Notes: a model not told the origin generated them from the letters alone. 55,913 nucleotides of DNA from Candidatus Poribacteria bacterium (GCA_021295755.1 JAGWBT010000004.1:1-55913), one strand, 5' to 3'. Positions 8,858 to 22,350 are shown, numbered from the stretch's first letter. Translations and numbers: made by a program.

Positions 8858-11131
8858 ATGTTTTCAAATGCAGCACAACAATCCGGGTTAACCTCGAGCG
8901 GCGGTGTCTCGCATTCCGAAGATGGGCACGGCTTCGGCACCGCGCCTGTTTTCCTTACATCGGTCTGTACGATTCTGGGTGCAATTCTTTTCTTGCGGTT
9001 TGGTTACGCGGTTGGTCATGTAGGACTTTGGGGCAGTTTGGCGATTATTGCTCTTGGACACTCGGTGACCATTCCCACGGTTCTAGCGGTCTCTGAGATA
9101 GCAACTAACCGCCGCGTGGCAGGTGGCGGCGCATACTACATTGTTAGCCGTTCCTTTGGTCCGACTATCGGTGGTACAATCGGGATCACTCTATATCTTG
9201 CCCAAGCGATCTCAATTGCTTTTTATATGGTGGCGTTTGCAGAAGCTCTGGAGCCCCTCTATAAATGGGTAGCTGTTACATACGAATTCAAGCTGGACCA
9301 CCGCTGGGTGAGTCTTACCTGCACGCTCCTCCTTATCGCGCTGATGTTGATTAAGGGTGCCGATTTGGGTGTGTGGGGCTTATGGGCGGTCAGTGCAATC
9401 CTAGTGGTCTCAATCGGTGCGTTCCTTTTTGGAATGGGGCCCGATGAGATTCGGCCGGAAGGGCTAAACATCACGGCACGAATCGAAGGTGGTGACAGTT
9501 TCGGCACGGTTTTCGCGATCTGTTTCCCTGCTTTCACCGGCATGATTGCGGGACTTGGGCTATCCGGCGACCTGAAGAACCCTCAGCGAAGTATACCTTT
9601 GGGTACGATTGCCGCGACGATCGCAGGAATGGTGATATACGCACTCGTCGCTGTCAAGCTGGCGCAGAGTGCCACGCCTGAAGCACTTGTCGCCGATCAG
9701 TTTGTTATGGCGAAGATTGCCTTGTGGGGGCCCGCGATCTACGTTGGATTGGGTGCAGCAGCACTGTCTTCGGCTCTTGGCTCGATTTTGGTCGCGCCCA
9801 GAACGCTCCAGATGCTTGGTCGTGACAATGTTTTACCGTTTTCTCAGTTGAACCGTCTGATGGAAAAAGGGGTGGGTCAGACGCAAGAACCGGTATATGC
9901 AACTTACGTCTCAGGTGCAATCGCGATTGTATTCGTGGTGGCTGGCGGTGTGGACTTTATCGCCCGAATCCTCACCATGTTCTTCATTGTGACATACGGC
10001 GTTCTGTGTGCGGTATCGTTCCTTGAACACTTTGCAGGTAATCCGTCCTATCGTCCCACGTTTCATTCTCGCTGGTACTTGTCGCTAGTTGGTACCGTGA
10101 TGTGTGGCTTGATGATGATTCAGATAAACGTGTTGTATGCGTTCATCTCGATCTTTATGATGGTGGCAATCTACCTCGGGCTCCGCCATGGCCACAAGGG
10201 ACAGCGTGACTTGACGGCAATTTTTCAGGGGACGATGTTCCAGCTAACTCGGTGGCTGCAGATTACCTTGCAGCGGAACCGTGGTATCTCCCCTGAGGGC
10301 GGGTGGCGTCCATCAATTGTCGCAGTGACTCAATTTGGCGAGCGTCGGCTTGGGCATTTTGATCTGCTCCGTTGGATTTGCCATCGGCACGGGTTTGGTC
10401 ATTTCATCCAGTTCTTCCACGGCGATTATTCGTTTCTTGACGAGATTGAGGCTCGTATTCACGTTGACGAGTTAATCCAACGGACAGAGGTCAGCAGGGC
10501 AGGCATCTTTGTTGATACCCTGATTTGCCCGACGTTTCAGCTCGCCGTTGCACAGACGTTGCAGATGCCGGGTATTTCTGGCCTGCCAAATAACTCTATC
10601 CTGTTTGAGTTTGATCGGGAAAATATTGATGAAATCAGTGATGTCGGACAGGGTGCTCGGCTCGCCATTAGTTCGATGTTCAATGTCCTTATACTGCGAT
10701 CGACGAAGTACCGATTCGGGTATCGGTCTTCGATCCATGTATGGGTGACCGAAGAGAACTTGATGAACGCTCCAATGATGCTAATGCTCGCGTATATCAT
10801 TGTAGGTCATCCGGAATGGAGACGTGCTGAGATTCAGCTTTTTGCGTGTTTCGAGTCTGAAGATGCGGAACGTGAGGCGGATAGGCTCTCGGCGTGGATG
10901 AGGGAAGGACGGCTGCCGATTTCAGCGCAGAACGTGACTTCTGTTTCGTGCAGCAATGGGGAAGCATTGGAGCAAGAGGTGTCCCATTACTCTTCTCAGG
11001 CTGACTTAGTTATTGCAGGTGTAATGGCGGACAATCTCGAACCTGAGCTGGCGACCCAAACACTGCGGCATTACGCGGGTGCGAACGATGTGCTCTTTGT
11101 CCATTCAATTGAGCGGATTGCAATTGATTAG
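8858..11131 (+). CDS. Cation-chloride cotransporter (SLC12/CCC)-like amino acid permease
   Basis: FG...VF.T...TILGAILFLRFG, GGGAYYIVSRSFGP.IGG.IG, FAICFPAFTGMIAG..LSGDLKNP..SIP.GT and FLEH...NPSYRPTF motifs; soluble C-terminal domain with WRPSI. Confidence 0.85.
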   Translation: MFSNAAQQSGLTSSGGVSHSEDGHGFGTAPVFLTSVCTILGAILFLRFGYAVGHVGLWGSLAIIALGHSVTIPTVLAVSEIATNRRVAGGGAYYIVSRSFGPTIGGTIGITLYLAQAISIAFYMVAFAEALEPLYKWVAVTYEFKLDHRWVSLTCTLLLIALMLIKGADLGVWGLWAVSAILVVSIGAFLFGMGPDEIRPEGLNITARIEGGDSFGTVFAICFPAFTGMIAGLGLSGDLKNPQRSIPLGTIAATIAGMVIYALVAVKLAQSATPEALVADQFVMAKIALWGPAIYVGLGAAALSSALGSILVAPRTLQMLGRDNVLPFSQLNRLMEKGVGQTQEPVYATYVSGAIAIVFVVAGGVDFIARILTMFFIVTYGVLCAVSFLEHFAGNPSYRPTFHSRWYLSLVGTVMCGLMMIQINVLYAFISIFMMVAIYLGLRHGHKGQRDLTAIFQGTMFQLTRWLQITLQRNRGISPEGGWRPSIVAVTQFGERRLGHFDLLRWICHRHGFGHFIQFFHGDYSFLDEIEARIHVDELIQRTEVSRAGIFVDTLICPTFQLAVAQTLQMPGISGLPNNSILFEFDRENIDEISDVGQGARLAISSMFNVLILRSTKYRFGYRSSIHVWVTEENLMNAPMMLMLAYIIVGHPEWRRAEIQLFACFESEDAEREADRLSAWMREGRLPISAQNVTSVSCSNGEALEQEVSHYSSQADLVIAGVMADNLEPELATQTLRHYAGANDVLFVHSIERIAID

Positions 11132-11252
11132 ACGGCAGCCTAATGCGTAATGTGTAATATGTAAAAAGACACGGTAGATGCCGCTCGGTGTGGGTCGTGC
11201 CGCTAAGTTCATAATATGCTGGAACCGCAACATATGCGAAAGGATATAAGCC

Positions 11253-11789
11253 GTGCAAGAGCGTGTGATACTCGTTGACCGCATGGGCAGAGAAATCGGT
11301 ACTGAAGAGAAGTTAAAGGCACATCGCGAGGGTAAACTGCATCGCGCATTTTCGGTTTTCATCTTCAATAAGTTAGGGGAACTGCTGCTTCAGAAACGGT
11401 CAGAGACAAAATATCACTCGGGTGGGTTGTGGACGAATACTTGCTGTAGTCATCCACGTCTTGGTGAAAGTCATAATTGTGCGGCGAGACGGCGGCTCAA
11501 TGAGGAGATGGGTTTCGATTGTGAATTGACTGAGCTTTTCAGCTTTATCTATCATGCCAAACTGGAGAATAGCCTATTTGAGCACGAGTTAGACAGTGTC
11601 TTTGTTGGACGCTATGATGGTCAACCGGTGCCCAATCCTGACGAAGTTGAGGATTGGAAATGGATGGAACCCGAAAAACTGAAGCGGGATGTTGGAGAAA
11701 ACCCTGAGCATTATACCTACTGGTTCAAATTGATACTTAATTGTGTTGTTAAGCAGTACCAAACGGTTAGTTCTCTGAATGAAATTTAA
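11253..11789 (+). CDS. idi: Isopentenyl-diphosphate delta-isomerase, type 1 (Nudix fold)
   Basis: LHRAFSVFIFN, LLLQKRS..KY..GGLWTNTCCSHP, RRL.EEMG, EHELD, YT.WFK. Confidence 0.95.
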   Translation: MQERVILVDRMGREIGTEEKLKAHREGKLHRAFSVFIFNKLGELLLQKRSETKYHSGGLWTNTCCSHPRLGESHNCAARRRLNEEMGFDCELTELFSFIYHAKLENSLFEHELDSVFVGRYDGQPVPNPDEVEDWKWMEPEKLKRDVGENPEHYTYWFKLILNCVVKQYQTVSSLNEI

Positions 11790-12372
11790 TCAATTTGTTC
11801 ATGTAAATTTCATAGTGGCGCTATTACTTTTGTTGTATATTAGTACAGCTGCAGCGAATGAACCGGTAGAAGAAACACTGAAAAGGGCGCGCAAGCAATT
11901 TTATGCCGCTATTGAGGACAAAAAGCAGATTGAACCAACAATCAAGCTGTTCGAGCTAATAGCACAGGTAAAACCGAGTTACACTGGGCGTACGCAGGTC
12001 TATATTGGAGCACTTGTTGCTCTCAAAGGAAAACATGCGTTTTTTCCGCATACCAAGCTCAAGTGGACAAAGCGTGGCCTAGCAATCATGGATAACGGTT
12101 TAGAGAAAAGCCCAAATGACATTGAAGCATTATTCATCCACGGCACGACCTGCTACCACCTTCCATTCTTTTTCAAACGTTCTGATGGTGCCCAGCGAGC
12201 CTTCAAGGAGATTATCAAGCGGTTGCCACTGGAACGATATACCTATGATCAGCAGCTAATCGCACATGTCGTTGAGTTCTTGCTTGAAAAGGCAAAACTG
12301 ACGAGCGATGAGAAAACATATCTCCAAATACTCAAAGGTAAATTGGAATTCCAGCCTCCAGTTGTGGATTAA
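11779..12372 (+). CDS. Secreted helical (TPR-like) protein of unknown function inside the carotenoid operon
   Basis: Signal peptide ending AAA-NE; predicted all-helical pattern; overlaps idi by 11 bp and crtY by 1 bp. Confidence 0.7.
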   Translation: MKFNQFVHVNFIVALLLLLYISTAAANEPVEETLKRARKQFYAAIEDKKQIEPTIKLFELIAQVKPSYTGRTQVYIGALVALKGKHAFFPHTKLKWTKRGLAIMDNGLEKSPNDIEALFIHGTTCYHLPFFFKRSDGAQRAFKEIIKRLPLERYTYDQQLIAHVVEFLLEKAKLTSDEKTYLQILKGKLEFQPPVVD

Positions 12373-13052
12373 TGAAAGTCGAATATCTTTTATTTAATCT
12401 CGTCGTTATTGCCGGACCCATAGCCTCCCAATTCAATTGCCAGATTAAGCAGATTTCCCATTGGAAATTGAAATTACTGGCGAGTGTAATTGTCATGATT
12501 CCTTATATCATTTGGGATGTGCTCGCCACCGGTTCGCATTGGTGGTTCAATGCAGCATATACGCTCGACTTTCGATTATTCGGTTTGCCGATTGAAGAGT
12601 GGCTTTTTTTTATCACGGTTCCATTTGGGTGTTTGTTAGTATGGGAAACCCTGCCTCAAGCAAACAAGGCGACACAGGTGAAGTCTCTTCGGCACGTCAG
12701 ATCTATTTTATACATGCTGTTGTTGGGGGGAGCATTGGTTTTTAGCATGGGTAAGCAGTATACAGGGTTGGTGCTATTTTGTTTGGGGCTCGTTGGATTG
12801 GCAGATAGGTTGTTAAGAGTTGATCTGCTGCTGCAACCGAGGACTTATCTCTATCTTACAGTTGTAGCTGGTTTGGTTTTGGTGTTTAACGGCTATCTCA
12901 CAGCTCGTCCGGTTGTTCTATATGGTGAGTCATATCAGGTTGGCTACCGAATTTTGTCAATTCCTGTCGAGGATTTCGGATACGGATTCGGGCTGATGCT
13001 TTTTAACGCGATTCTCTATGAGAAGTTGAGGAAAATTTGGCATGGAACGTAA
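12372..13052 (+). CDS. crtY: Membrane lycopene cyclase with two fused CrtYc/CrtYd-type domains
   Basis: Two repeats: PYIIWD..A...HWWFN...LFGLPIEEWLFF and LVFNGYLT...VV.Y.......RILSIPVEDFGYG. Confidence 0.85.
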   Translation: MKVEYLLFNLVVIAGPIASQFNCQIKQISHWKLKLLASVIVMIPYIIWDVLATGSHWWFNAAYTLDFRLFGLPIEEWLFFITVPFGCLLVWETLPQANKATQVKSLRHVRSILYMLLLGGALVFSMGKQYTGLVLFCLGLVGLADRLLRVDLLLQPRTYLYLTVVAGLVLVFNGYLTARPVVLYGESYQVGYRILSIPVEDFGYGFGLMLFNAILYEKLRKIWHGT

Positions 13053-14562
13053 GAGAGTGGCGGTCATTGGTGGCGGGCTCGGTGCGTTAAGTGGGGCGAT
13101 TCGTCTCGCGCGGCTGGGATTCTCTGTACAACTATTCGAGAAGAATCCGACAATTGGTGGGAAGATCAACGAGGTGGTTTTGGAGGGCTACCGGTTTGAT
13201 ACTGGGGCATCTTTATTGACGATGCCTTTTGTTATTGACGAATTATTTGATTTTGCTGGATTCAATCGGTCAGATTATCTGGACTTTATACCAATTGACC
13301 CGATATGCCGATATTTCTTTGCCGATGGTTCAGTGATGGATGCAAGTGCTGATAAAGCAAAGATGAAAGCTGCGATCAAACAGTTATCGCCCATTGATGC
13401 GGAAGCGTATGAAAGTTTCTTGGAATATGCGGAACGGATACACACTCTGACAGCTGAAATCTTTATGTTTACACCGATTCATGAGTTCAAGAAACTGATG
13501 AAGTTCCGTTATTTGCGGACGCTGTTTAGACTTCATCAAATAGATCCGTTTCGGACGATACATCAGAGTGTGTCAGGTTTTTTTTCAGATTCGCGCCTGA
13601 TCCAACTTTTCGACCGGTACGCTACGTACAACGGCTCAGATCCGTTTCAAGCCCCTGCAACCCTGAATATAATTCCGTATGTTGAATACGGCTTGGGTGG
13701 TTACTACATCAAAGGTGGCATGTATCGCTTGGTCAATGCTTTGGAAATGATAGCCCGCGAGCGAGGGGTCGAGATTCATACATCGGTCAAGGTTGAAAAG
13801 ATTTGTCAAGATGGTAAACAGGTCAGTGGAGTGCGAGCCAACGGTCAGAAGGTTCCCGCGGATTATGTACTGTGCGGTGCAGATGCTATCATAGCGCATG
13901 ACGAATTGATTGGCGGTCCTCCAAATCAGCGTGAAAAACTGAATCGATTGGAACCATCGTTGTCGGGAATGGTATTCCTTTGGGGTGTTAGAAGTAATCA
14001 CTCACAATTAGCGCATCACAACATTATCTTCTCTAGTGACTACGAAGCGGAATTTCGGCAGATTTTCAAGCATAGGCGAGTGCCGGATGAACCGACTATC
14101 TACATCGCCATAACGAGTAAAGCGGATGCAGCACATGCCCCTGTTGGTGGGGAAAATTGGTTTGTGTTGTTGAACATGCCTTATCTCGCACCGGGACAGA
14201 TGTGGCAAAAGGAAAAAGTTCGGATGCGAAACTTTGTACTAGGTAGGTTAAGAGAAATTGGTCTCGACATCGAAGATCGAATCGAAGCGGAGCAGGTCTA
14301 CACACCGGAGGATTTTTCTGAGTTTTATGCTAGCAATCAGGGAAGCATCTACGGCATTTCGTCCAATAGCAAAACTACCGCGTTCAAACGTCTACCGAAT
14401 CGTAGCCGTGTCCTTGATAGACTCTATTTCGCAGGCGGTTCTGTGCATCCGGGGGGTGGTATTCCTCTGGTTATATTGTCTGGAAAAATGGCGGCATCAT
14501 TGATTGCTGCGGATCACGGATTGAAAATTGAAAACATCGTTGGTCCGCGGGAGCGGATATGA
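13042..14562 (+). CDS. crtD: CrtI-family desaturase, most like 1-hydroxycarotenoid 3,4-desaturase
   Basis: FAD motif IGGGLGALSGA; RFDTGASLLTMP; FDRYATYNGSDPF; GGSVHPGGGIPLV (recalled as typical of Bacteroidota-type CrtD); a second, canonical crtI follows. Confidence 0.65.
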   Translation: MERKRVAVIGGGLGALSGAIRLARLGFSVQLFEKNPTIGGKINEVVLEGYRFDTGASLLTMPFVIDELFDFAGFNRSDYLDFIPIDPICRYFFADGSVMDASADKAKMKAAIKQLSPIDAEAYESFLEYAERIHTLTAEIFMFTPIHEFKKLMKFRYLRTLFRLHQIDPFRTIHQSVSGFFSDSRLIQLFDRYATYNGSDPFQAPATLNIIPYVEYGLGGYYIKGGMYRLVNALEMIARERGVEIHTSVKVEKICQDGKQVSGVRANGQKVPADYVLCGADAIIAHDELIGGPPNQREKLNRLEPSLSGMVFLWGVRSNHSQLAHHNIIFSSDYEAEFRQIFKHRRVPDEPTIYIAITSKADAAHAPVGGENWFVLLNMPYLAPGQMWQKEKVRMRNFVLGRLREIGLDIEDRIEAEQVYTPEDFSEFYASNQGSIYGISSNSKTTAFKRLPNRSRVLDRLYFAGGSVHPGGGIPLVILSGKMAASLIAADHGLKIENIVGPRERI

Positions 14563-16040
14563 AACAGAAAATCGTCATCATTGGTTCAGGATTTGGTGGG
14601 CTTGCAGCAGCGATTCGACTCCAATCCCAAGGTCTGCAAGTTACAATTCTGGAGAAAAACGCGAAAGTTGGTGGTCACGCCTATCAATTGGTTAAGAATG
14701 GGTATACTTTCGACATGGGACCATCTATTATCACCGCACCCGACCTGATTCAGCGAGTATTTAGATGCGCCGGTGTGCGGATGGAAGATTACCTTGATTT
14801 AGTCAAACTGGATCCGTTTTATCGCATCTATTTCCATGATGGTTCATCGCTTGACTATACGGATGATACCGAGCGGATGAAACAGCAGATGGCGCAGTTC
14901 AATAGGGCAGATGCTGGAAACTACGACGATTTCATGGCGCATACCCGTCAACTCTACGATGCTGTTATCACAGACGGTTTAGGCTCAATTCCGTTTGATT
15001 TGCAAACTATGCTTGGTTTTCTGCCGCGTGCCTTGCGACTGCGAGCATTGACACCTGCTTTTAACTTCGTTAAGAGGTATTTTGATGACCCACGTCACCG
15101 CTTCACCTTTTCGTTTCATCCGTTGTTTATAGGTGGCAATCCGTTCCGGGCACCAGCTGTTTACTTAATGATTCCTTATCTTGAGAAGACAGGGGGTGTC
15201 TGGTTCTGCAAAGGTGGGATGTACAACCTTGTGCGGGCATTAGAGAGCGTGTTCAAAGAACTCGGCGGTGTTGTTGAAAACGATGCAGAAGTGGAGCAAA
15301 TTGTTGTTGAAGATCGGCAAGCAAAAGGCGTTCTAGCAAACGGACAATTTTACGAGGCAGATGGTATTATTTCCAACGCCGATTTGGTGCACACCTACGG
15401 AGAACTTATTGAGCCCGAACATCGTAGGAGATGGTCTTACAAGAAACTCAGGAAAACTCAATATTCGATGAGTGCATTTTTGCTCTACCTTGGTGTTCGT
15501 AAAAAGTATCCACAGTTGCAGCATCATACGCTAATTCTTTCTGAGAGGTACAAAGGGTTGGTAGATGACATTTTTGATAATAAGATTCTTCCAGATGATT
15601 TTTCAATGTATTTACACATTCCATCGCAAACGGATCCGTTGATGGCACCGGAAGATTGTGAGAGCATATATGTACTGATTCCAGTACCGAATTTGGAGAG
15701 TGGGATCAACTGGGAAAAGATGGAGAAAGTGTATATTAACAAGGTACTGACCTTTTTGGAGAACGACTTTGGATTGACAGATTTAAGTACTTCGATTGAG
15801 GTAATTGAAACGTTCACACCTTTGGATTTTAAACAACATCGGAATAGTCATCTTGGCAGCGCATGGGGAGTTGAGCCAAAACTAACGCAGACAGCGTATT
15901 TCCGGCCACATAACCGAAGTGAAGATATAGAGCAACTTTACTTCGTTGGAGCAAGCACCCATCCCGGTGCAGGAGTGCCTGGCGTGCTGCTAACAGCAGA
16001 AACAACGGTAAAGTTGGTTATCAAGGATTTGATAGGATAG
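14559..16040 (+). CDS. crtI: Phytoene desaturase
   Basis: IGSGFGGLAAAIRL, TFDMGPSIIT, FSFHPLFIGGNPF, FRPHNRSEDI..LYFVGASTHPGAGVPGV. Confidence 0.9.
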   Translation: MKQKIVIIGSGFGGLAAAIRLQSQGLQVTILEKNAKVGGHAYQLVKNGYTFDMGPSIITAPDLIQRVFRCAGVRMEDYLDLVKLDPFYRIYFHDGSSLDYTDDTERMKQQMAQFNRADAGNYDDFMAHTRQLYDAVITDGLGSIPFDLQTMLGFLPRALRLRALTPAFNFVKRYFDDPRHRFTFSFHPLFIGGNPFRAPAVYLMIPYLEKTGGVWFCKGGMYNLVRALESVFKELGGVVENDAEVEQIVVEDRQAKGVLANGQFYEADGIISNADLVHTYGELIEPEHRRRWSYKKLRKTQYSMSAFLLYLGVRKKYPQLQHHTLILSERYKGLVDDIFDNKILPDDFSMYLHIPSQTDPLMAPEDCESIYVLIPVPNLESGINWEKMEKVYINKVLTFLENDFGLTDLSTSIEVIETFTPLDFKQHRNSHLGSAWGVEPKLTQTAYFRPHNRSEDIEQLYFVGASTHPGAGVPGVLLTAETTVKLVIKDLIG

Positions 16041-16209
16041 ATTGGGTCTCCGTCTATTTTGATATTTTGTGTCCTGATGGCTGGTGGGACGAATTTCTAA
16101 CCCAACTCATCCGCTTGATCCAATACCTGTAGGTGTGTCTAAGATACTAGCAACTTGGATTAGGATAGTCTTCAGTGTTTAGGAATCAATTGAGGGAGGA
16201 GATTATATC

Positions 16210-17136
16210 ATGAGATCGTGGAAGCTAACAGACGAAGATCGAGCTGCGTTTGAGTACGCTCGTAGAATAACCGCATACTATTCAAAAAGCTTTTATGTCT
16301 CAGCACGAATACTTCCCGCTGATCGTCGGTGGGCAACATACGCGTTGTACGGTTTCTGCCGACACTGTGACAATCTGATCGACACACCACGTCAGCGAAC
16401 TCGATCGGAAATCTTTGGAGAGATCGAATTCTTGACAGAAGAATTGCAAATTGCCTATAACACCGGCGAGTCCGAGCACCCGGTCGTTCGTGCCTTTATT
16501 CTTGTTGCCAGGCGGTATGGGATTCCTATTGGATACCCCCTCGATCTACTCAAGGGGGTTACTATGGATATCCAACAGGCACGGTACATAACATTTGATG
16601 AACTCACTTTTTTTTGTTATCGGGTTGCCTCCGTTGTTGGACTGATGATGACACATATCCTTGGGTATAAAGACAAACGTGCTTTTGAATACGCGAAGTT
16701 ACTCGGGATTGCGATGCAACTGACCAATATTCTGCGAGACATCAAAGAGGATAAGGAGATGGGACGGATCTATCTGCCACAGGCGGATTTATCGGTATTC
16801 GGTGTGTCGAATCAAGACATCTTAAATGAGAAGATGACGCCTCAATTACGTGCACTTATGAAGTTCCAAATTAAACGGGCAGATCGTTATTATTCTGAAG
16901 CGATCCCCGGCATCTCTCTACTCAAGACGGAATCACAGTATGCGATCTATTCGGCTGCTAAAATTTACCGTGGTATCTTGAGGCAAATTGAAGCGCGAAA
17001 CTATAATCCATTCACAAGCCGAGTATTTGTGCCACCCATTCAAAAAATTGGGATTCTGTTACACGAGGTGCTTAGGATGAACGTTCTATCGGCGTGGGAG
17101 AAACTATGCCCGATGCACTCTGGAATAAATAGATGA
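16210..17136 (+). CDS. crtB: Phytoene synthase
   Basis: YSKSFY, LYGFCR..DNLID, YCYRVA-like FCYRVASVVG, LGIAMQLTNILRDIKED...GRIYLP. Confidence 0.95.
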   Translation: MRSWKLTDEDRAAFEYARRITAYYSKSFYVSARILPADRRWATYALYGFCRHCDNLIDTPRQRTRSEIFGEIEFLTEELQIAYNTGESEHPVVRAFILVARRYGIPIGYPLDLLKGVTMDIQQARYITFDELTFFCYRVASVVGLMMTHILGYKDKRAFEYAKLLGIAMQLTNILRDIKEDKEMGRIYLPQADLSVFGVSNQDILNEKMTPQLRALMKFQIKRADRYYSEAIPGISLLKTESQYAIYSAAKIYRGILRQIEARNYNPFTSRVFVPPIQKIGILLHEVLRMNVLSAWEKLCPMHSGINR

Positions 17137-17792
17137 TTCGAGCACAGCACCGCCTTTGGGCGGACCTCATCTTCCATCCCTACCTTAAGTGGCTCTTCAA
17201 GCGTCATTTTGATACGATTCAACTGTTAGGGACACCGCCGGAAATTCCCAACGATTTACCGTTGCTGTTGTTGCCAAACCACAGTACATGGTGGGACGGG
17301 TTCTTTGTGTATCTGCTCAACAAACGGATTTTTCGTCGTACCGCCTATCTGATGATGCTTGAGGAACAGCTATCTAAATACTGGTTCTTCGCGAAGATTG
17401 GTGCTTATTCAATCGAGCCGGGCCATCGGCGGGGTATCGTCGAATCGCTGGCATACACCGTTGAGTTATTGAACCAACAGATGTCGCTGGTCTCTGTTTT
17501 TCCTCAAGGCGAACTATTACCGTGGCATACGCGACCCCTCGGTTACAAGCGAGGCGTTGAATGGATTTTACAAAAGTACGGCAAGCAGGTCGCTGTACTT
17601 CCATTGGCAATTCGTACGGAATTTCTCGGTGAAAGATGTCCAAGTGCCTTTTTTCTTTGCGGGGAAGTGAATCTATTTGACACAGAAACATTTTGCGGGA
17701 TGGATTGGCTTGAAAAGACTGAAACAGTGTTGTTGGATGAATTGGCATTACGGATTCTTTGTGAAGAAGAGGGACTAAATCTGCTTTCCTGA
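17133..17792 (+). CDS. cruD: PlsC-family acyltransferase, probable carotenoid glycoside acyltransferase (CruD-like)
   Basis: HX4D motif PNHSTWWDGF, GAYSI, VFPQGE; located between crtB and the glycosyltransferase. Confidence 0.7.
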   Translation: MIRAQHRLWADLIFHPYLKWLFKRHFDTIQLLGTPPEIPNDLPLLLLPNHSTWWDGFFVYLLNKRIFRRTAYLMMLEEQLSKYWFFAKIGAYSIEPGHRRGIVESLAYTVELLNQQMSLVSVFPQGELLPWHTRPLGYKRGVEWILQKYGKQVAVLPLAIRTEFLGERCPSAFFLCGEVNLFDTETFCGMDWLEKTETVLLDELALRILCEEEGLNLLS

Positions 17793-17801
17793 AAGGTAGA
17801 T

Positions 17802-18947
17802 ATGATACTATTTACATGGCTGATTATCTCGGCTGGGCTGCTACTGATTTGCTTGATAGTGACTTTGTTCAATGCCGTAACTGCACCGATGCTCAAAAAA
17901 GCCAATAACTACCGGAACGAACCCCGTGTTTCAGTGCTGATTCCCGCTCGAAACGAGGAAGCCAACATCGGTGCTTGTATCGAAGGATTCTTGGCTCAAA
18001 AGTACGATAACTTTGAGATTCTCGTTCTTGATGATCAGTCGACAGATCACACGGAATCCATCATCAAGGAGTTGAGTCAACAATATGTTAACATTCAAGC
18101 AATTCAGGGCCAACCCCTGCCATCGGGCTGGACGGGAAAAAACTGGGCGTGCCATCAACTGAGTCAGTATGCGAGTGGAGAGATACTCATCTTCACCGAT
18201 GCGGATAACCGTCCCGCTCCAACTGCGATTGCGAATAGTATCGCTTATATGCAGAAGTTAGAGCTGGGACTATTGTCAGCGTTTCCACAGAAGGTGACAC
18301 GGACCTTGGCGGAAAAACTTGTGGTTCCGGTGGTTGATATGTTCGTTTACGCCGGACTTCCACTATGGCTTACATATTTGAGTCGTTCACCGTCGCTTGC
18401 TGCCGCGAGTGGTCTGTGGATTGTTTTCACTCGTGAAGCGTATCAACGAATTGGTGGACATGAGGCATTATCGAATCGAATTGTTGAAGACGTTGAGTTA
18501 AGTCGATTGGCAAAAAAGAGAGGTATTAAAATCTTAACATTGGCGGGCACTCAGATGGTATCTTGCAGAATGTATCATTCGTTCAGCGAAGTATGGAACG
18601 GATTTTCCAAGAATCTTTTTGGATTGGTAAGCTACCGGACGATCCCGTTTTTTGTCTTAATTCTGCTGCTGTCTACCACGTGTGTTCTGCCCTACGGTAC
18701 TGTCTGGTTCGCGCCATTTACAGCACTTTCCCTCGTTGCGATCATCATGAACGTTACGATGCGACTGATACTATCGGTCAAATATAAACACCCTTTCTTT
18801 GCAAGTGTGATTTTGCATCCGTTTGGTGTTTTGCTAACATTGCTGATTGGGATTAATTCATTCTATCAAGCTAGACGTGGTCGCTTGGAATGGAAGGGAC
18901 GACAGATCGACTTGCAGTTGGGCAAGTCGATACATGATAAATTGTGA
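17802..18947 (+). CDS. cruC: GT2 glycosyltransferase, probable hydroxy-carotenoid glucosyltransferase (CruC-like)
   Basis: VSVLIPARNEE, LDDQSTD, PSGWTGKNWAC.QL, FTDAD, IVEDV.L, WNGFSKN, WKGR. Confidence 0.75.
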   Translation: MILFTWLIISAGLLLICLIVTLFNAVTAPMLKKANNYRNEPRVSVLIPARNEEANIGACIEGFLAQKYDNFEILVLDDQSTDHTESIIKELSQQYVNIQAIQGQPLPSGWTGKNWACHQLSQYASGEILIFTDADNRPAPTAIANSIAYMQKLELGLLSAFPQKVTRTLAEKLVVPVVDMFVYAGLPLWLTYLSRSPSLAAASGLWIVFTREAYQRIGGHEALSNRIVEDVELSRLAKKRGIKILTLAGTQMVSCRMYHSFSEVWNGFSKNLFGLVSYRTIPFFVLILLLSTTCVLPYGTVWFAPFTALSLVAIIMNVTMRLILSVKYKHPFFASVILHPFGVLLTLLIGINSFYQARRGRLEWKGRQIDLQLGKSIHDKL

Positions 18948-19005
18948 AAAGCGAGCAAATGCGTATCATTATTATACGATATAGGCTTAGGCATCCGGTG
19001 TCGTA

Positions 19006-19662
19006 GTGAACAGAGTAAAAATAGGGGTGCTATATCTATTTTTAGGCGCAGGTGGACTGTGGCACATGCTCAACGTTTTCCAAGAGGTTATGCGAGCACT
19101 TGCTTCGCCAATCATGTTTGGCTTAGGTGTTTGGCTATTTTGGGAATGTTGGCAGATATATTCACAGCGTGAAAGGCTAAAGCTGGCCCTCTGGGGTGTA
19201 GGTATTATTATCGCTAGTTTTGGAATTGAATGGCTTGGTGTACGGACAGGTAAGATTTTTGGTTCGTATGTATATGGACAAACACTACGTCCGTCAATTG
19301 ATGGTGTGCCAATCTCTATTGGAGGTGCTTGGTTTGTAATGCTTATTGCTTCAATGGCTGTTGCCCAAACAATTGCACCGAAATCCGTAGCTAGGAGTCT
19401 TGTTAAGTTGACGTGTTTTGTTGCATTGTTAATGGTTTGTTTCGACCTATTGCTGGAGCCTGCGGCAGTAAAATTGAACTACTGGATATGGGTGAATGAC
19501 CACATTCCTTTGCAGAACTATCTAGCGTGGTTTGGATTGAGTTTTATCTTTACGACGATCGGTTTACGAGTTGGTTTGTTCCATCGCTCGTTACCCCGAA
19601 TCGCCTTTCATTTTTATTTTGCTCAACTCGCTTATTTCGGATTGGTATGCCTGAAAAGTTAA
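19006..19662 (+). CDS. cruF: Carotenoid 1,2-hydratase (CruF/DUF422 family)
   Basis: IEWLGV.TG.IFG.Y.YG..L......VP..IG..WF; FDLLLEP.A....YW.W....IPLQNY.AWF. Confidence 0.85.
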   Translation: MNRVKIGVLYLFLGAGGLWHMLNVFQEVMRALASPIMFGLGVWLFWECWQIYSQRERLKLALWGVGIIIASFGIEWLGVRTGKIFGSYVYGQTLRPSIDGVPISIGGAWFVMLIASMAVAQTIAPKSVARSLVKLTCFVALLMVCFDLLLEPAAVKLNYWIWVNDHIPLQNYLAWFGLSFIFTTIGLRVGLFHRSLPRIAFHFYFAQLAYFGLVCLKS

Positions 19663-19666
19663 AAGT

Positions 19667-20410
19667 ATGAAATCAACAAAAAAAGGCTTATTCATTGGGT
19701 TAACGATTATAGGACTATGGGGATTGAGTCTCTCAATTTTACTCACGTTCAATGTGGCTGATATCAACATTGCGCTAATACCTGTGTGCATAGTTTGTCA
19801 GACATTTCTTTATACCGGTCTGTTCATTACGGCGCACGATGCGATGCACGGTACAGTTTGTCCGACTCATCCATGGGTCAACAATATAATCGGCGCAATT
19901 GCTGTCAGGCTATACGCACTATTCTCATATCGCAAATTACAAGAAAAGCATTGGGAACACCATCGAACACCTGCAAGCGATACGGACCCAGATTTTCACG
20001 ATGGACAACACAGTAGCTTTTTAGTGTGGTATCTCTGTTTTATGAAAACCTACCTGAGTTGGAAACAGGTAATTGGGATGGCGATTGCATTTCAAATCAT
20101 GGAATATGGTTTGGCTATCTCTAGCTTCAACTTGGTTCTGTTTTGGGTCTCTCCTGCGCTACTTAGCACGGTACAGTTATTTTATTTCGGGACATATTTA
20201 CCACACCGAATGCCGGCAGGTGGATATAACAATCCGCACCGTGCACAGAGCAATGCGTATTCTACGTTCTGTTCGTTTATCACCTGCTATCACTTCGGAT
20301 ACCATTGGGAACATCACGAGTATCCATACATTCCATGGTGGAAGCTGCCAACAATACGAAAGATGAAATCTTTGAATCATGTATATCGCCATAGTCGTCC
20401 CATTGGATAA
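19667..20410 (+). CDS. crtW: Beta-ring carotenoid ketolase
   Basis: LYTGLFITAHDAMHG, HWEHH...S..DPDFH, QLFYFGTYLPH, CYHFGYHWEHHEYP..PWWKLP. Confidence 0.9.
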   Translation: MKSTKKGLFIGLTIIGLWGLSLSILLTFNVADINIALIPVCIVCQTFLYTGLFITAHDAMHGTVCPTHPWVNNIIGAIAVRLYALFSYRKLQEKHWEHHRTPASDTDPDFHDGQHSSFLVWYLCFMKTYLSWKQVIGMAIAFQIMEYGLAISSFNLVLFWVSPALLSTVQLFYFGTYLPHRMPAGGYNNPHRAQSNAYSTFCSFITCYHFGYHWEHHEYPYIPWWKLPTIRKMKSLNHVYRHSRPIG

Positions 20411-20443
20411 TCCTCGGTTTTTGGTACAGAGAAAACATCTCCT

Positions 20444-21145
20444 ATGAGTTTAGTAATCACTGCTGTGGTAGGAATTGTAATGATGATGTTACTGCGGCTC
20501 TTCTTTAAGCCACCATTTGGGAAGAATGTTATTCGTTTGGACACGGAGCAACGGTTAGTCGCGCTCACCTTCGATGACGGGCCTCATCCGCCCTACACCG
20601 ATCGGTTACTTGATGTGCTCGCCAAACACAAGGTCAAAGCTACATTCTTCATGATTGGAAATCGGATCGAAAAACATCCCCAAACGGTGCACCGCGTCAT
20701 CGTTGAGGGACATCAGATTGGTAATCATTCCTATAGCCATCCTGTGTTGGGTTTCCGGTTGCCTGCTCGTATTCGACGAGAAATTGAACGCACGGACAGC
20801 CTTCTTCGACAGTTAGGGGCTGCGGGTGAGATCGCGTTTCGTGCACCGATGTTAACAAGATTTCTGCCAGTCGCATGGTTTCTCGCGAAAGCTGATAGAG
20901 CACATATTAGTTGTAATGTGTGGAGTTGGGATTGGACTACCCAGAATCCGGATAGAATTGCCCAAAGGGTATTAAAAAAAACAGGGCCCGGTTCAATAAT
21001 TGTATTACATGATGGAAAAGCGGAAAATGCACATGCGGACCGTGCGGGTACACTCGAAGCAACAGACCGAATTATCACGAAACTCAAACGCAAGAAATAC
21101 CGGTTTTGTACAATTAGGGACGGTTTAAGAGCAGACATCTGTTAA
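20444..21145 (+). CDS. NodB-type polysaccharide deacetylase with N-terminal membrane anchor
   Basis: ALTFDDGP, GNHSYSHP, IIVLHDG motifs; RxPY motif reads RAPM and DxxDW reads SWDW. Confidence 0.85.
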   Translation: MSLVITAVVGIVMMMLLRLFFKPPFGKNVIRLDTEQRLVALTFDDGPHPPYTDRLLDVLAKHKVKATFFMIGNRIEKHPQTVHRVIVEGHQIGNHSYSHPVLGFRLPARIRREIERTDSLLRQLGAAGEIAFRAPMLTRFLPVAWFLAKADRAHISCNVWSWDWTTQNPDRIAQRVLKKTGPGSIIVLHDGKAENAHADRAGTLEATDRIITKLKRKKYRFCTIRDGLRADIC

Positions 21146-21267
21146 GATATAGTCTCAGGAAATTGTGGCAGAGACCTATTTCCGCAGGATTTCTTTACCA
21201 AAAAGTCCTTTAGATTTAGACATCTGATTTTCTGGAGATTTCAATTGGTGCAAAGGAGAAAGGTCGA

Positions 21268-22350
21268 ATGAGTTGGCGCGTTGTAGACCATATAACGATT
21301 TATCGTGAAGAGGGCTGGTACGGTGCCCACCCCAACCTAGTGCGTACACCCAGTGGGAATCTGTTAGTTCTGTTTCATCGTTCACCGTTCGTGGGTTATT
21401 CTCACCACAGTCACCCGTTATTTGATGTCCGTGCCTGTCGCTCAGAGGATGAAGGGCAAACTTGGAGTGATCAACACTTGGTTACCATCGATCCGTTGGG
21501 CGGTGTACTTGACTTCGGTACGCATACCCTTGCGGACGGGAGCATCTTCCTTCACGCTTCCAATGTTGCGCTAGTTCCCGAGGCTGAAGAGCGCGAAGGT
21601 GGCGAATGGGATGCTCACGCGGGTATCCCATTCTGGGTGCGTTCCCAGGATGATGGGCACACTTGGACCGAACCGGTACGCTTCCCACCATTGCCTGATG
21701 CCGTGTGGGGGCATCCTGCGTCTCATTCGGGGATTGCCCGGAGCGGGTTGATACAGATGCCCGACGGACGTTTGCTCTTACCGAGCAAGGCGACCGATCA
21801 TCCGGACGGCTCAATGCCTTTCTTTGGTATGTTGCGGGTGTCAAGGGATATGGGGAGGACGTGGGAGTACGGTGGGCGGATTGCGGAAGACCCTGTTACC
21901 CACTTCAGTGAGCCTGCCATCCATCTCACCCCTAGTGGAAAGATTATCGTTCTCTTTCGATGCCACCCTGGGCCCGGTGCAGCTAGCCGCGAGGTGTGCC
22001 TCGCGTTAGTGGAATCGACCGACGGTGGGGAAACATGGTCTCCGTGGCGACAGACGGCAATCCGCGGCTGCCCCGGTCACATGCTTGGACTGCGGGATGG
22101 GCGTATCTTCACCACTGTCGGGACACGCTGGCCCGGACAGCGGGGTTGCCTAGCACGTATCCTCGAACCGGAGGGAAGTGACTTGGACACCGCACCGGTG
22201 CTTGTTATCCGAAGCGATTCGCACGATTCCGATTGCGGTTATCCTTGGTCAGTTGAACTTGAAGACGGTCGTGTGTTGGTGGTGTATTACTATGTCTATT
22301 CGGATGGCCATCGAGGCATTGAAGGTACGATTGTCGAGGAGGTTTCGTGA
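21268..22350 (+). CDS. Sialidase-fold / BNR (Asp-box) repeat glycosidase
   Basis: Four Asp boxes: SEDEGQTWS, SQDDGHTWT, SRDMGRTWE, STDGGETWS; DCGYP..VELEDG.VLVVYY. Confidence 0.8.
   Translation: MSWRVVDHITIYREEGWYGAHPNLVRTPSGNLLVLFHRSPFVGYSHHSHPLFDVRACRSEDEGQTWSDQHLVTIDPLGGVLDFGTHTLADGSIFLHASNVALVPEAEEREGGEWDAHAGIPFWVRSQDDGHTWTEPVRFPPLPDAVWGHPASHSGIARSGLIQMPDGRLLLPSKATDHPDGSMPFFGMLRVSRDMGRTWEYGGRIAEDPVTHFSEPAIHLTPSGKIIVLFRCHPGPGAASREVCLALVESTDGGETWSPWRQTAIRGCPGHMLGLRDGRIFTTVGTRWPGQRGCLARILEPEGSDLDTAPVLVIRSDSHDSDCGYPWSVELEDGRVLVVYYYVYSDGHRGIEGTIVEEVS

Follow-up and report, generated by a model that had tools for sequence, protein, structure and literature searches.

In a 55,913-nucleotide stretch of DNA from Candidatus Poribacteria (GCA_021295755.1 JAGWBT010000004.1:1-55913), hereafter the window, positions 11253-20410 of the plus strand carry ten co-oriented open reading frames (ORFs) in the order idi-orf2-crtYcd-crtD-crtI-crtB-AT-GT2-cruF-crtW (AT, acyltransferase), as determined by ORF listing and Pfam/NCBIfam scans. 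We read this run as a chromosomal, vertically inherited carotenoid operon of a sponge-type Candidatus Poribacteria genome that is of the Ignavibacterium album type and is predicted from sequence to direct synthesis of a red, myxobacton-ester-type pigment, a reading to which we assign a probability of about 70%. All eight genes of the I. album-type deoxyflexixanthin glycoside-ester set (crtB, crtI, the lycopene cyclase, cruF, crtD, GT2, acyltransferase and crtW) are adjacent here. Chance does not account for the arrangement, which is repeated in about 25 Poribacteria loci and in other phyla. An earlier description made from the window's sequence (the original prediction) had proposed ten co-oriented, mostly overlapping or closely spaced genes, and this was confirmed with every ORF found where it had been placed. 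In gene order the junctions are overlaps of 11, 1, 11 and 4 nt, a gap of 169 nt between crtI and crtB, an overlap of 4 nt, and gaps of 9, 58 and 4 nt. The features of the run and the gene that follows it are listed below.

11253..11789, plus strand: idi, type 1 (Nudix) isopentenyl-diphosphate isomerase (NF002995 168 bits, cut-off 127)
11779..12372, plus strand: orf2, conserved uncharacterised protein of 197 aa (no Pfam/NCBIfam family)
12372..13052, plus strand: fused CrtYc/CrtYd-type lycopene beta-cyclase, integral membrane protein (PF18916 97 bits in two stretches; TIGR03462 96 bits)
13042..14562, plus strand: CrtD-like 1-hydroxycarotenoid 3,4-desaturase (NF042421 386 bits, cut-off 500)
14559..16040, plus strand: CrtI phytoene desaturase (TIGR02734 547 bits; CrtD models about 240)
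16041..16209, no strand: crtI-crtB spacer of 169 nt, the sole sizeable gap of the run
16210..17136, plus strand: CrtB phytoene synthase (PF00494 254 bits; CrtB and HpnD models under equivalog cut-offs)
17133..17792, plus strand: PlsC-type acyltransferase, CruD-like (PF01553 36 bits; HX4D motif)
17802..18947, plus strand: GT2 glycosyltransferase, CruC/CruG-like, putative carotenoid 1'-O-glycosyltransferase (PF00535 85 bits)
19006..19662, plus strand: CruF-family carotenoid 1',2'-hydratase, short at about 218 aa (PF04240 99 bits, cut-off 25)
19667..20410, plus strand: CrtW beta-ring 4-ketolase (NF045690 355.3 bits, cut-off 350)
20444..21145, plus strand: membrane-anchored polysaccharide deacetylase (CE4), neighbour gene (PF01522 110 bits)

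The proteins of the window were compared by tblastn against 79 loci fetched through CrtD. The full order from idi to crtW was present in every Poribacteria locus with sufficient flank (about 25 loci) at 63-97% identity. The order orf2-crtYcd-crtD-crtI-crtB-AT-GT2-cruF-crtW was also found in KSB1, Calditrichota, Zhuqueibacter and some mislabelled 'Cytophagia' metagenome-assembled genomes (MAGs) at 37-69% identity, and the Ignavibacteriota loci carried a rearranged cluster that still included orf2. Database clusters matching the CrtD-like protein at 74-96% identity numbered more than 120, the named ones all being Candidatus Poribacteria, and the closest genome records were Poribacteria MAGs, bearing out the Poribacteria host that the original prediction had considered.

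Enzyme assignments and the predicted pigment

A motif check found the catalytic motifs intact in CrtW, the acyltransferase, CrtB and GT2, and every crt gene is present in the whole genome in single copy. The gene assignments of the original prediction held with one correction; its crtY is a fused CrtYc/CrtYd-type membrane cyclase (PF18916/TIGR03462) and not a CrtY flavoprotein. CrtW has three His boxes (HDAMH57, HWEHH95 and HWEHH213) and passed the NF045690 equivalog cut-off, and CrtB carries two Asp-rich motifs. CruF passed its Pfam threshold and scored under the equivalog cut-offs of both TIGR03460 (77 vs 155) and NF045693 (39 vs 400); its orthologues in other Poribacteria are about 220-225 aa. 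The acyltransferase HX4D motif is HSTWWD at residue 50, the GT2 DxD motif lies at residue 133, and the adjacency of these two genes is conserved across phyla. The best NCBIfam matches of GT2 were the hopanoid-associated HpnB (159 bits), HpnI, and CruG (130 bits, cut-off 600), with HpnB and CruG under cut-off. We assign the pair to the CruC/CruD type as a GT2 protein with DxD and a PlsC acyltransferase with HX4D inside a carotenoid cluster, the scan holding no curated CruC/CruD model.

The two desaturases were separated by both scores and phylogeny. The first scored 386 bits with NF042421 (cut-off 500), 368 with the proteobacterial CrtD model NF045637 (cut-off 580) and 68 with CrtO, and is thus under the CrtD equivalog cut-offs, yet among the specific models CrtD fits it best. 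NF042421 was also the top model for the Ignavibacteriota orthologue, and the proteins from Melioribacteraceae (423) and Calditrichia (437) likewise stayed under its cut-off, so a low score is a trait of the entire clade. In a maximum-likelihood tree, whose rows included no experimentally verified CrtD, the first desaturase fell in a 19-row clade (support 98/94) with orthologues from Balneolota, Calditrichota, KSB1 and Ignavibacteriota, and the second desaturase (14559..16040) was placed in the CrtI clade. The crtP-position desaturase of Staphylococcus was a long-branch sister of the CrtD-like clade, and its crtN-position desaturase, together with Acholeplasma, was an outgroup of the CrtI clade. 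The first desaturase therefore did not group with CrtP, CrtO or CrtN, the placement that the original prediction had named as the one that would speak against its CrtD assignment. A third CrtI-family paralogue was observed in Calditrichota clusters (L041:19678, L048:12305 and L040:1766), in two of these loci directly after crtW. Its copies make up a well-supported clade of their own, and Poribacteria are without it.

The pathway had been called complete. Nine enzymes with family assignments are indeed encoded in the run, but the geranylgeranyl diphosphate (GGPP) synthase is not. crtE is absent from the cluster and two polyprenyl synthases are encoded outside it, of which the one on contig C36 looks like a short-chain IdsA/GGPP synthase, so the pathway is complete only with a gene on another contig. 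All pathway steps were assigned from enzyme families. GGPP supplied by a synthase encoded outside the cluster would be condensed by CrtB to phytoene, which CrtI would convert to lycopene. The fused CrtYcd would then close one lycopene end to give gamma-carotene, CruF would hydrate the open end to introduce the 1'-hydroxyl, CrtD would add the 3',4' double bond to give 1'-OH-torulene, and CrtW would place the 4-keto group on the ring to give deoxyflexixanthin. GT2 would glycosylate the 1'-hydroxyl and the PlsC-type acyltransferase would then esterify the sugar with a fatty acid, so that the end product would be a membrane pigment of the myxobacton-ester or 2'-deoxy-salinixanthin type.

A deoxyflexixanthin (myxobacton-type) glycoside fatty-acid ester is therefore a plausible product by family assignment, in agreement with the original prediction; the chemistry, including the use of CrtW, was already documented in I. 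album (PMC3362086). In that organism 1'-OH-torulene and deoxyflexixanthin were detected by high-performance liquid chromatography and glycosyl fatty-acyl esters were suggested (Liu et al. 2012, PMC3362086). I. album and the window share one set of enzyme genes (crtB, crtI, crtD, a lycopene cyclase gene, cruF, a GT2 resembling cruC, an acyltransferase resembling cruD, and crtW; PMC3362086), both rely on CrtW rather than CrtO, and the products measured in I. album match the aglycone predicted here. The chemistry and enzymology are thus already known, with I. album as the direct precedent including CrtW in place of CrtO. Two Ignavibacteriota MAG loci (L061 and L062) also have an orf2 homologue beside crtYcd and crtD, as in the window. 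However, protein identity to Ignavibacteriota is just 24-42%, their order (crtB-orf2-crtYcd-crtD-AT-cruF-crtI) differs from the Poribacteria order, and the host here is an uncultured member of Poribacteria in which idi leads the run, unlike in Ignavibacteriota.

More distant systems share parts of this scheme. Rhodothermus marinus and Salinibacter ruber make the closely related salinixanthin via CrtO (PMC5822342, PMC7414004). Their pathway shares with the one predicted here a monocyclic 4-keto, 3',4'-didehydro, 1'-glycosyloxy carotenoid acyl ester and CruC-/CruD-type enzymes, but differs in the use of CrtO, in that part of the pigment carries a 2'-hydroxyl, and in gene organisation, with two divergent operons and cruC elsewhere (PMC5822342, PMC7414004). 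The CruF, CruC and CruD activities of Chloroflexus aurantiacus were demonstrated by expression in E. coli, and there the same three families hydrate, glycosylate and acylate the psi end (PMC13704108). C. aurantiacus differs in having CrtO, a CrtY-type cyclase, no CrtD step and dispersed genes (PMC13704108).

The myxobacton ester of Myxococcus and the keto-myxocoxanthin glucoside ester of Roseiflexus are both 1'-glucosyloxy-3',4'-didehydro-1',2'-dihydro-beta,psi-caroten-4-one fatty-acid esters, the same end product as predicted here. Myxococcus uses a CrtC-type hydratase, separate CrtYc and CrtYd, and CarH/B12 light control. In contrast, the window encodes a CruF hydratase and a fused cyclase. 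No CarH-like gene turned up here; a genome search for a CarH-type MerR-B12 photoreceptor returned a single B12-binding_2 match, which belongs to a corrinoid methyltransferase system. At L093 (G000:C233 ~20844-21005), which carries a corrinoid-dependent methyltransferase system, the corrinoid-protein gene is seemingly split into overlapping frames (L093:1345-1695 and 1670-2125).

CrtW as the ketolase, in place of CrtO, was upheld by the NF045690 score and by the distribution of the genome's CrtO-like genes. Two CrtO-like FAD oxidoreductases (C25:7864-9444 and C220:8805-10400) scored 340 bits with NF045689 (cut-off 1000) and share 52% identity. Of the 20 genomes of the genus, 19 have kept them at 89-97% identity, including ones without any crt gene, and they were rejected as a second ketolase because cluster-less congeners keep both. 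The original prediction had also seen no 2'-hydroxylase. Consistent with this, no member of the FA_hydroxylase family (crtZ/crtG type) was found in the genome in a search that did not extend to CrtA-type oxygenases, which fits a product without a 3- or 2'-hydroxyl.

Several points weigh against this assignment of the product. CrtD, CruF, CrtB and GT2 score under NCBIfam equivalog cut-offs, so the specificities of these enzymes are inferred. No description of Poribacteria pigments was found in the literature searched. Both fused and heterodimeric CrtYcd cyclases yield bicyclic beta-carotene in some hosts, and the monocyclic product is read from the enzymes working at the open psi end, as the cyclase sequence itself cannot tell. 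Echinenone or canthaxanthin could thus be co-products. These bicyclic ketocarotenoids could even be the main products, with both ends cyclised and ketolated by CrtW and the glycoside esters minor. This would suit a CrtW that scores above the beta-carotene ketolase equivalog cut-off, and aerobic C. aurantiacus accumulates canthaxanthin- and echinenone-related compounds despite having CruF, CruC and CruD (PMC13704108). We consider it unlikely, as four of the nine enzymes (CruF, CrtD, GT2 and the acyltransferase) require an open psi end and are kept with the cluster in five phyla, and I. album produces monocyclic pigments with the same gene set (PMC3362086).

The monocyclic glycoside ester likely serves in photoprotection, antioxidant defence or membrane function and not in light harvesting, which is disfavoured because no rhodopsin was detected in the genome. 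The original prediction had raised the idea of a xanthorhodopsin antenna, in which the keto-carotenoid would harvest light for a xanthorhodopsin-type proton pump. Salinixanthin, a close structural analogue, is a xanthorhodopsin antenna in Salinibacter. In the present genome (95.9% complete), however, a search with PF01036 gave no match over cut-off, although no control genome matched either and the search is hence unvalidated. The single sub-threshold match (20.9 bits) was a CNNM/GldE-family protein. The search for blh/BCD was also empty, with 0 of 14 control genomes matched and so no positive control. Rhodopsin and blh are likely absent, and an antenna role has a vanishingly small probability.

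Ancestral presence and repeated loss of the cluster

The distribution of the cluster was surveyed in 176 species-level genomes of the phylum. crtB was found in 52 genomes and crtW in 52. Close homologues (>=59% identity) accounted for 49 of the 52 crtB copies, all of them from a single order (families f1, f3 and f4), and the other 3 were distant. Within the window's genus, crtB and crtW were present in just 4 of 20 genomes, leaving 16 species without a phytoene synthase.

In ten cluster-less congeners the permease neighbourhood reads propeller-permease-idi-BNR-TIM barrel and is colinear with the window minus the block from orf2 to the deacetylase (11779-21145). idi is retained beside the permease in all ten (80-87% identity), which identifies it as a resident gene. 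The deletion junctions differ. Five loci (L084, L085, L088, L089 and L090) keep the final deacetylase codons, two (L083 and L087) break within the deacetylase-BNR spacer, and L091 retains 45 nt of the orf2 5' end along with 170 nt of crtD matching window 13330-13499 at 80.6% identity. In a tree of flanking genes, cluster-bearing and cluster-less genomes interleave, and L003 (with the cluster) is sister to L092 (without) at 100% support. The differing breakpoints, leftover fragments and interleaved flank tree show that the cluster is ancestral and that the orf2-to-deacetylase block was deleted at least three independent times in the genus, leaving idi behind. The trait is therefore dispensable. 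One cluster-less congener has a deacetylase copy with an internal stop codon (G042:C222:299-916) that is probably a decaying remnant of the block.

These observations were also weighed against recent horizontal acquisition of the cluster, as an island, by this genome. Its GC content of 0.449, as compared to about 0.50 in the flanks and 0.494 genome-wide, could be read as favouring an island and as counting against vertical inheritance. The patchy occurrence in the genus (4/20 genomes), insertion sequence (IS) and TnpB insertions inside the cluster of relatives, and the missing crtE might point in the same direction. However, cluster-less congeners carry scars at the same site (orf2 and crtD fragments and the deacetylase 3' end) with differing breakpoints, and among genomes with the cluster the crt genes have diverged in step with the permease and BNR genes that flank them. 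The universally retained idi is equally low in GC, and the sister family has a weaker GC dip, so the low GC does not indicate a recent import. Ancestral presence followed by repeated deletion was preferred, and recent horizontal acquisition was rejected as very unlikely. In window 12001-20000, GC at third codon positions (GC3) is 0.39 in cruF and 0.43 in crtW, far lower than the 0.56 in the flanking permease and BNR genes, despite apparent vertical inheritance. TnpB-like ORFs (IS200/IS605 type, 382-428 aa) were observed between cruF and crtW in the sister family (L005:8792-9940, and L006:16431-17717 on the minus strand).

Probable operon organisation, orf2 and the neighbouring deacetylase

Gene spacing suggests that the run is likely a single operon. 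This status is uncertain because of the 169-nt crtI/crtB spacer and an insertion at the same place in a relative. In a 96%-identical relative (L002), an IS3-family element (orfA plus a fragmented orfB) occupies the crtI/crtB spacer (L002:13189-14303). The insertion point corresponds to window ~16146-16148; it splits the operon of the relative, and the window spacer is intact. An internal promoter may lie in this spacer. A promoter and terminator scan of 10900-21500 gave counts at or below shuffled expectation with nothing usable in the spacers, the short repeats in the spacers were trivial, and an Rfam scan for a riboswitch or leader gave no match. In the sister-family locus L004 (L004:6240-8202), two same-strand genes directly upstream of idi resemble a BlaI/MecI-type repressor and a BlaR1-like M56 membrane sensor, as judged by sequence with no family search. 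This pair could be an operon regulator in the L004 lineage. In the window, an SLC12-like permease lies upstream of idi at the position of the BlaI-/BlaR1-like genes in L004.

orf2, which shares 11 nt with idi and 1 nt with crtYcd and is translationally coupled between them, is the most conserved member of the block that is not an enzyme. The small, predicted exported protein begins with a signal-like or anchor helix and continues as an all-helical TPR-like domain (AlphaFold model with nine helices, pLDDT 89.7). No Pfam or NCBIfam family matched, and a Foldseek structure search returned generic TPR matches alone (E 6e-3 or weaker). The family comprises just 393 database clusters, none of them named, and seven residues are invariant in 24 aligned homologues from several phyla. 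In Poribacteria, KSB1, Calditrichota and Ignavibacteriota alike, crtYcd is preceded by orf2. This ORF adjoins the gene set in at least five phyla, as seen in loci that were selected through CrtD, and it is deleted together with the set. We tentatively propose that orf2 may be an unrecognised component of the keto-carotenoid glycoside-ester pathway and, separately, that the repeated loss of the block among sister species could reflect niche splitting by exposure to light or oxygen within sponges, possibilities that we consider doubtful at present. orf2 might for example assist the membrane cyclase from the periplasmic side, or help to position the pigment in the outer leaflet or outer membrane.

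The deacetylase starts 33 nt past crtW on the same strand and has intact CE4 motifs (TFDD and HSYSH). In the window's genus it occurs in precisely those genomes that have the cluster, and every deletion removed it. This raised the possibility that the sugar of the pigment is an amino sugar, with GT2 adding GlcNAc and the deacetylase converting it to GlcN by analogy to HpnI/HpnK of hopanoid synthesis, which would make an unprecedented aminoglycoside carotenoid. The HpnB and HpnI matches of GT2, which came together with CruG, would also suit this scheme. However, the deacetylase is absent from all non-Poribacteria clusters, and in several Poribacteria (L007, L011 and L036) two reverse-strand genes lie between crtW and the deacetylase. 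Across the phylum, 72 of the 176 genomes encode the deacetylase; about 20 of these (sister family) have neither crtB nor crtW, and in two genomes (G171 and G111) it is intact beside a crtW 3' remnant of the deleted cluster. As the deacetylase is separable from the cluster elsewhere in the phylum, its role as a pathway enzyme was largely rejected and it is treated as a neighbour; we put the chance of an amino-sugar pigment as slight indeed.

Predicted pigmentation in Poribacteria

Among uncultured sponge symbionts, Poribacteria rank with the most abundant, and the conserved cluster assigns them a specific, testable pigment class. The sole literature mention of Poribacteria carotenoids that we found is a metatranscriptome of Aplysina aerophoba (2026), in which Poribacteriota lycopene-cyclase and idi transcripts were higher by day and were labelled as beta-carotene biosynthesis (PMC12879404); the sponge biosynthetic gene cluster surveys that we checked were silent on the cluster. 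The cluster described here accounts for these day-time idi and lycopene-cyclase transcripts (PMC12879404). What is new is the distribution of the cluster in the phylum and its repeated loss within the genus, and the Poribacteria host and the uncharacterised conserved companion protein orf2 add to its interest. Pigmentation in this genus is a variable, repeatedly lost trait, and the genus thereby provides a natural comparison for the purpose of the pigment.

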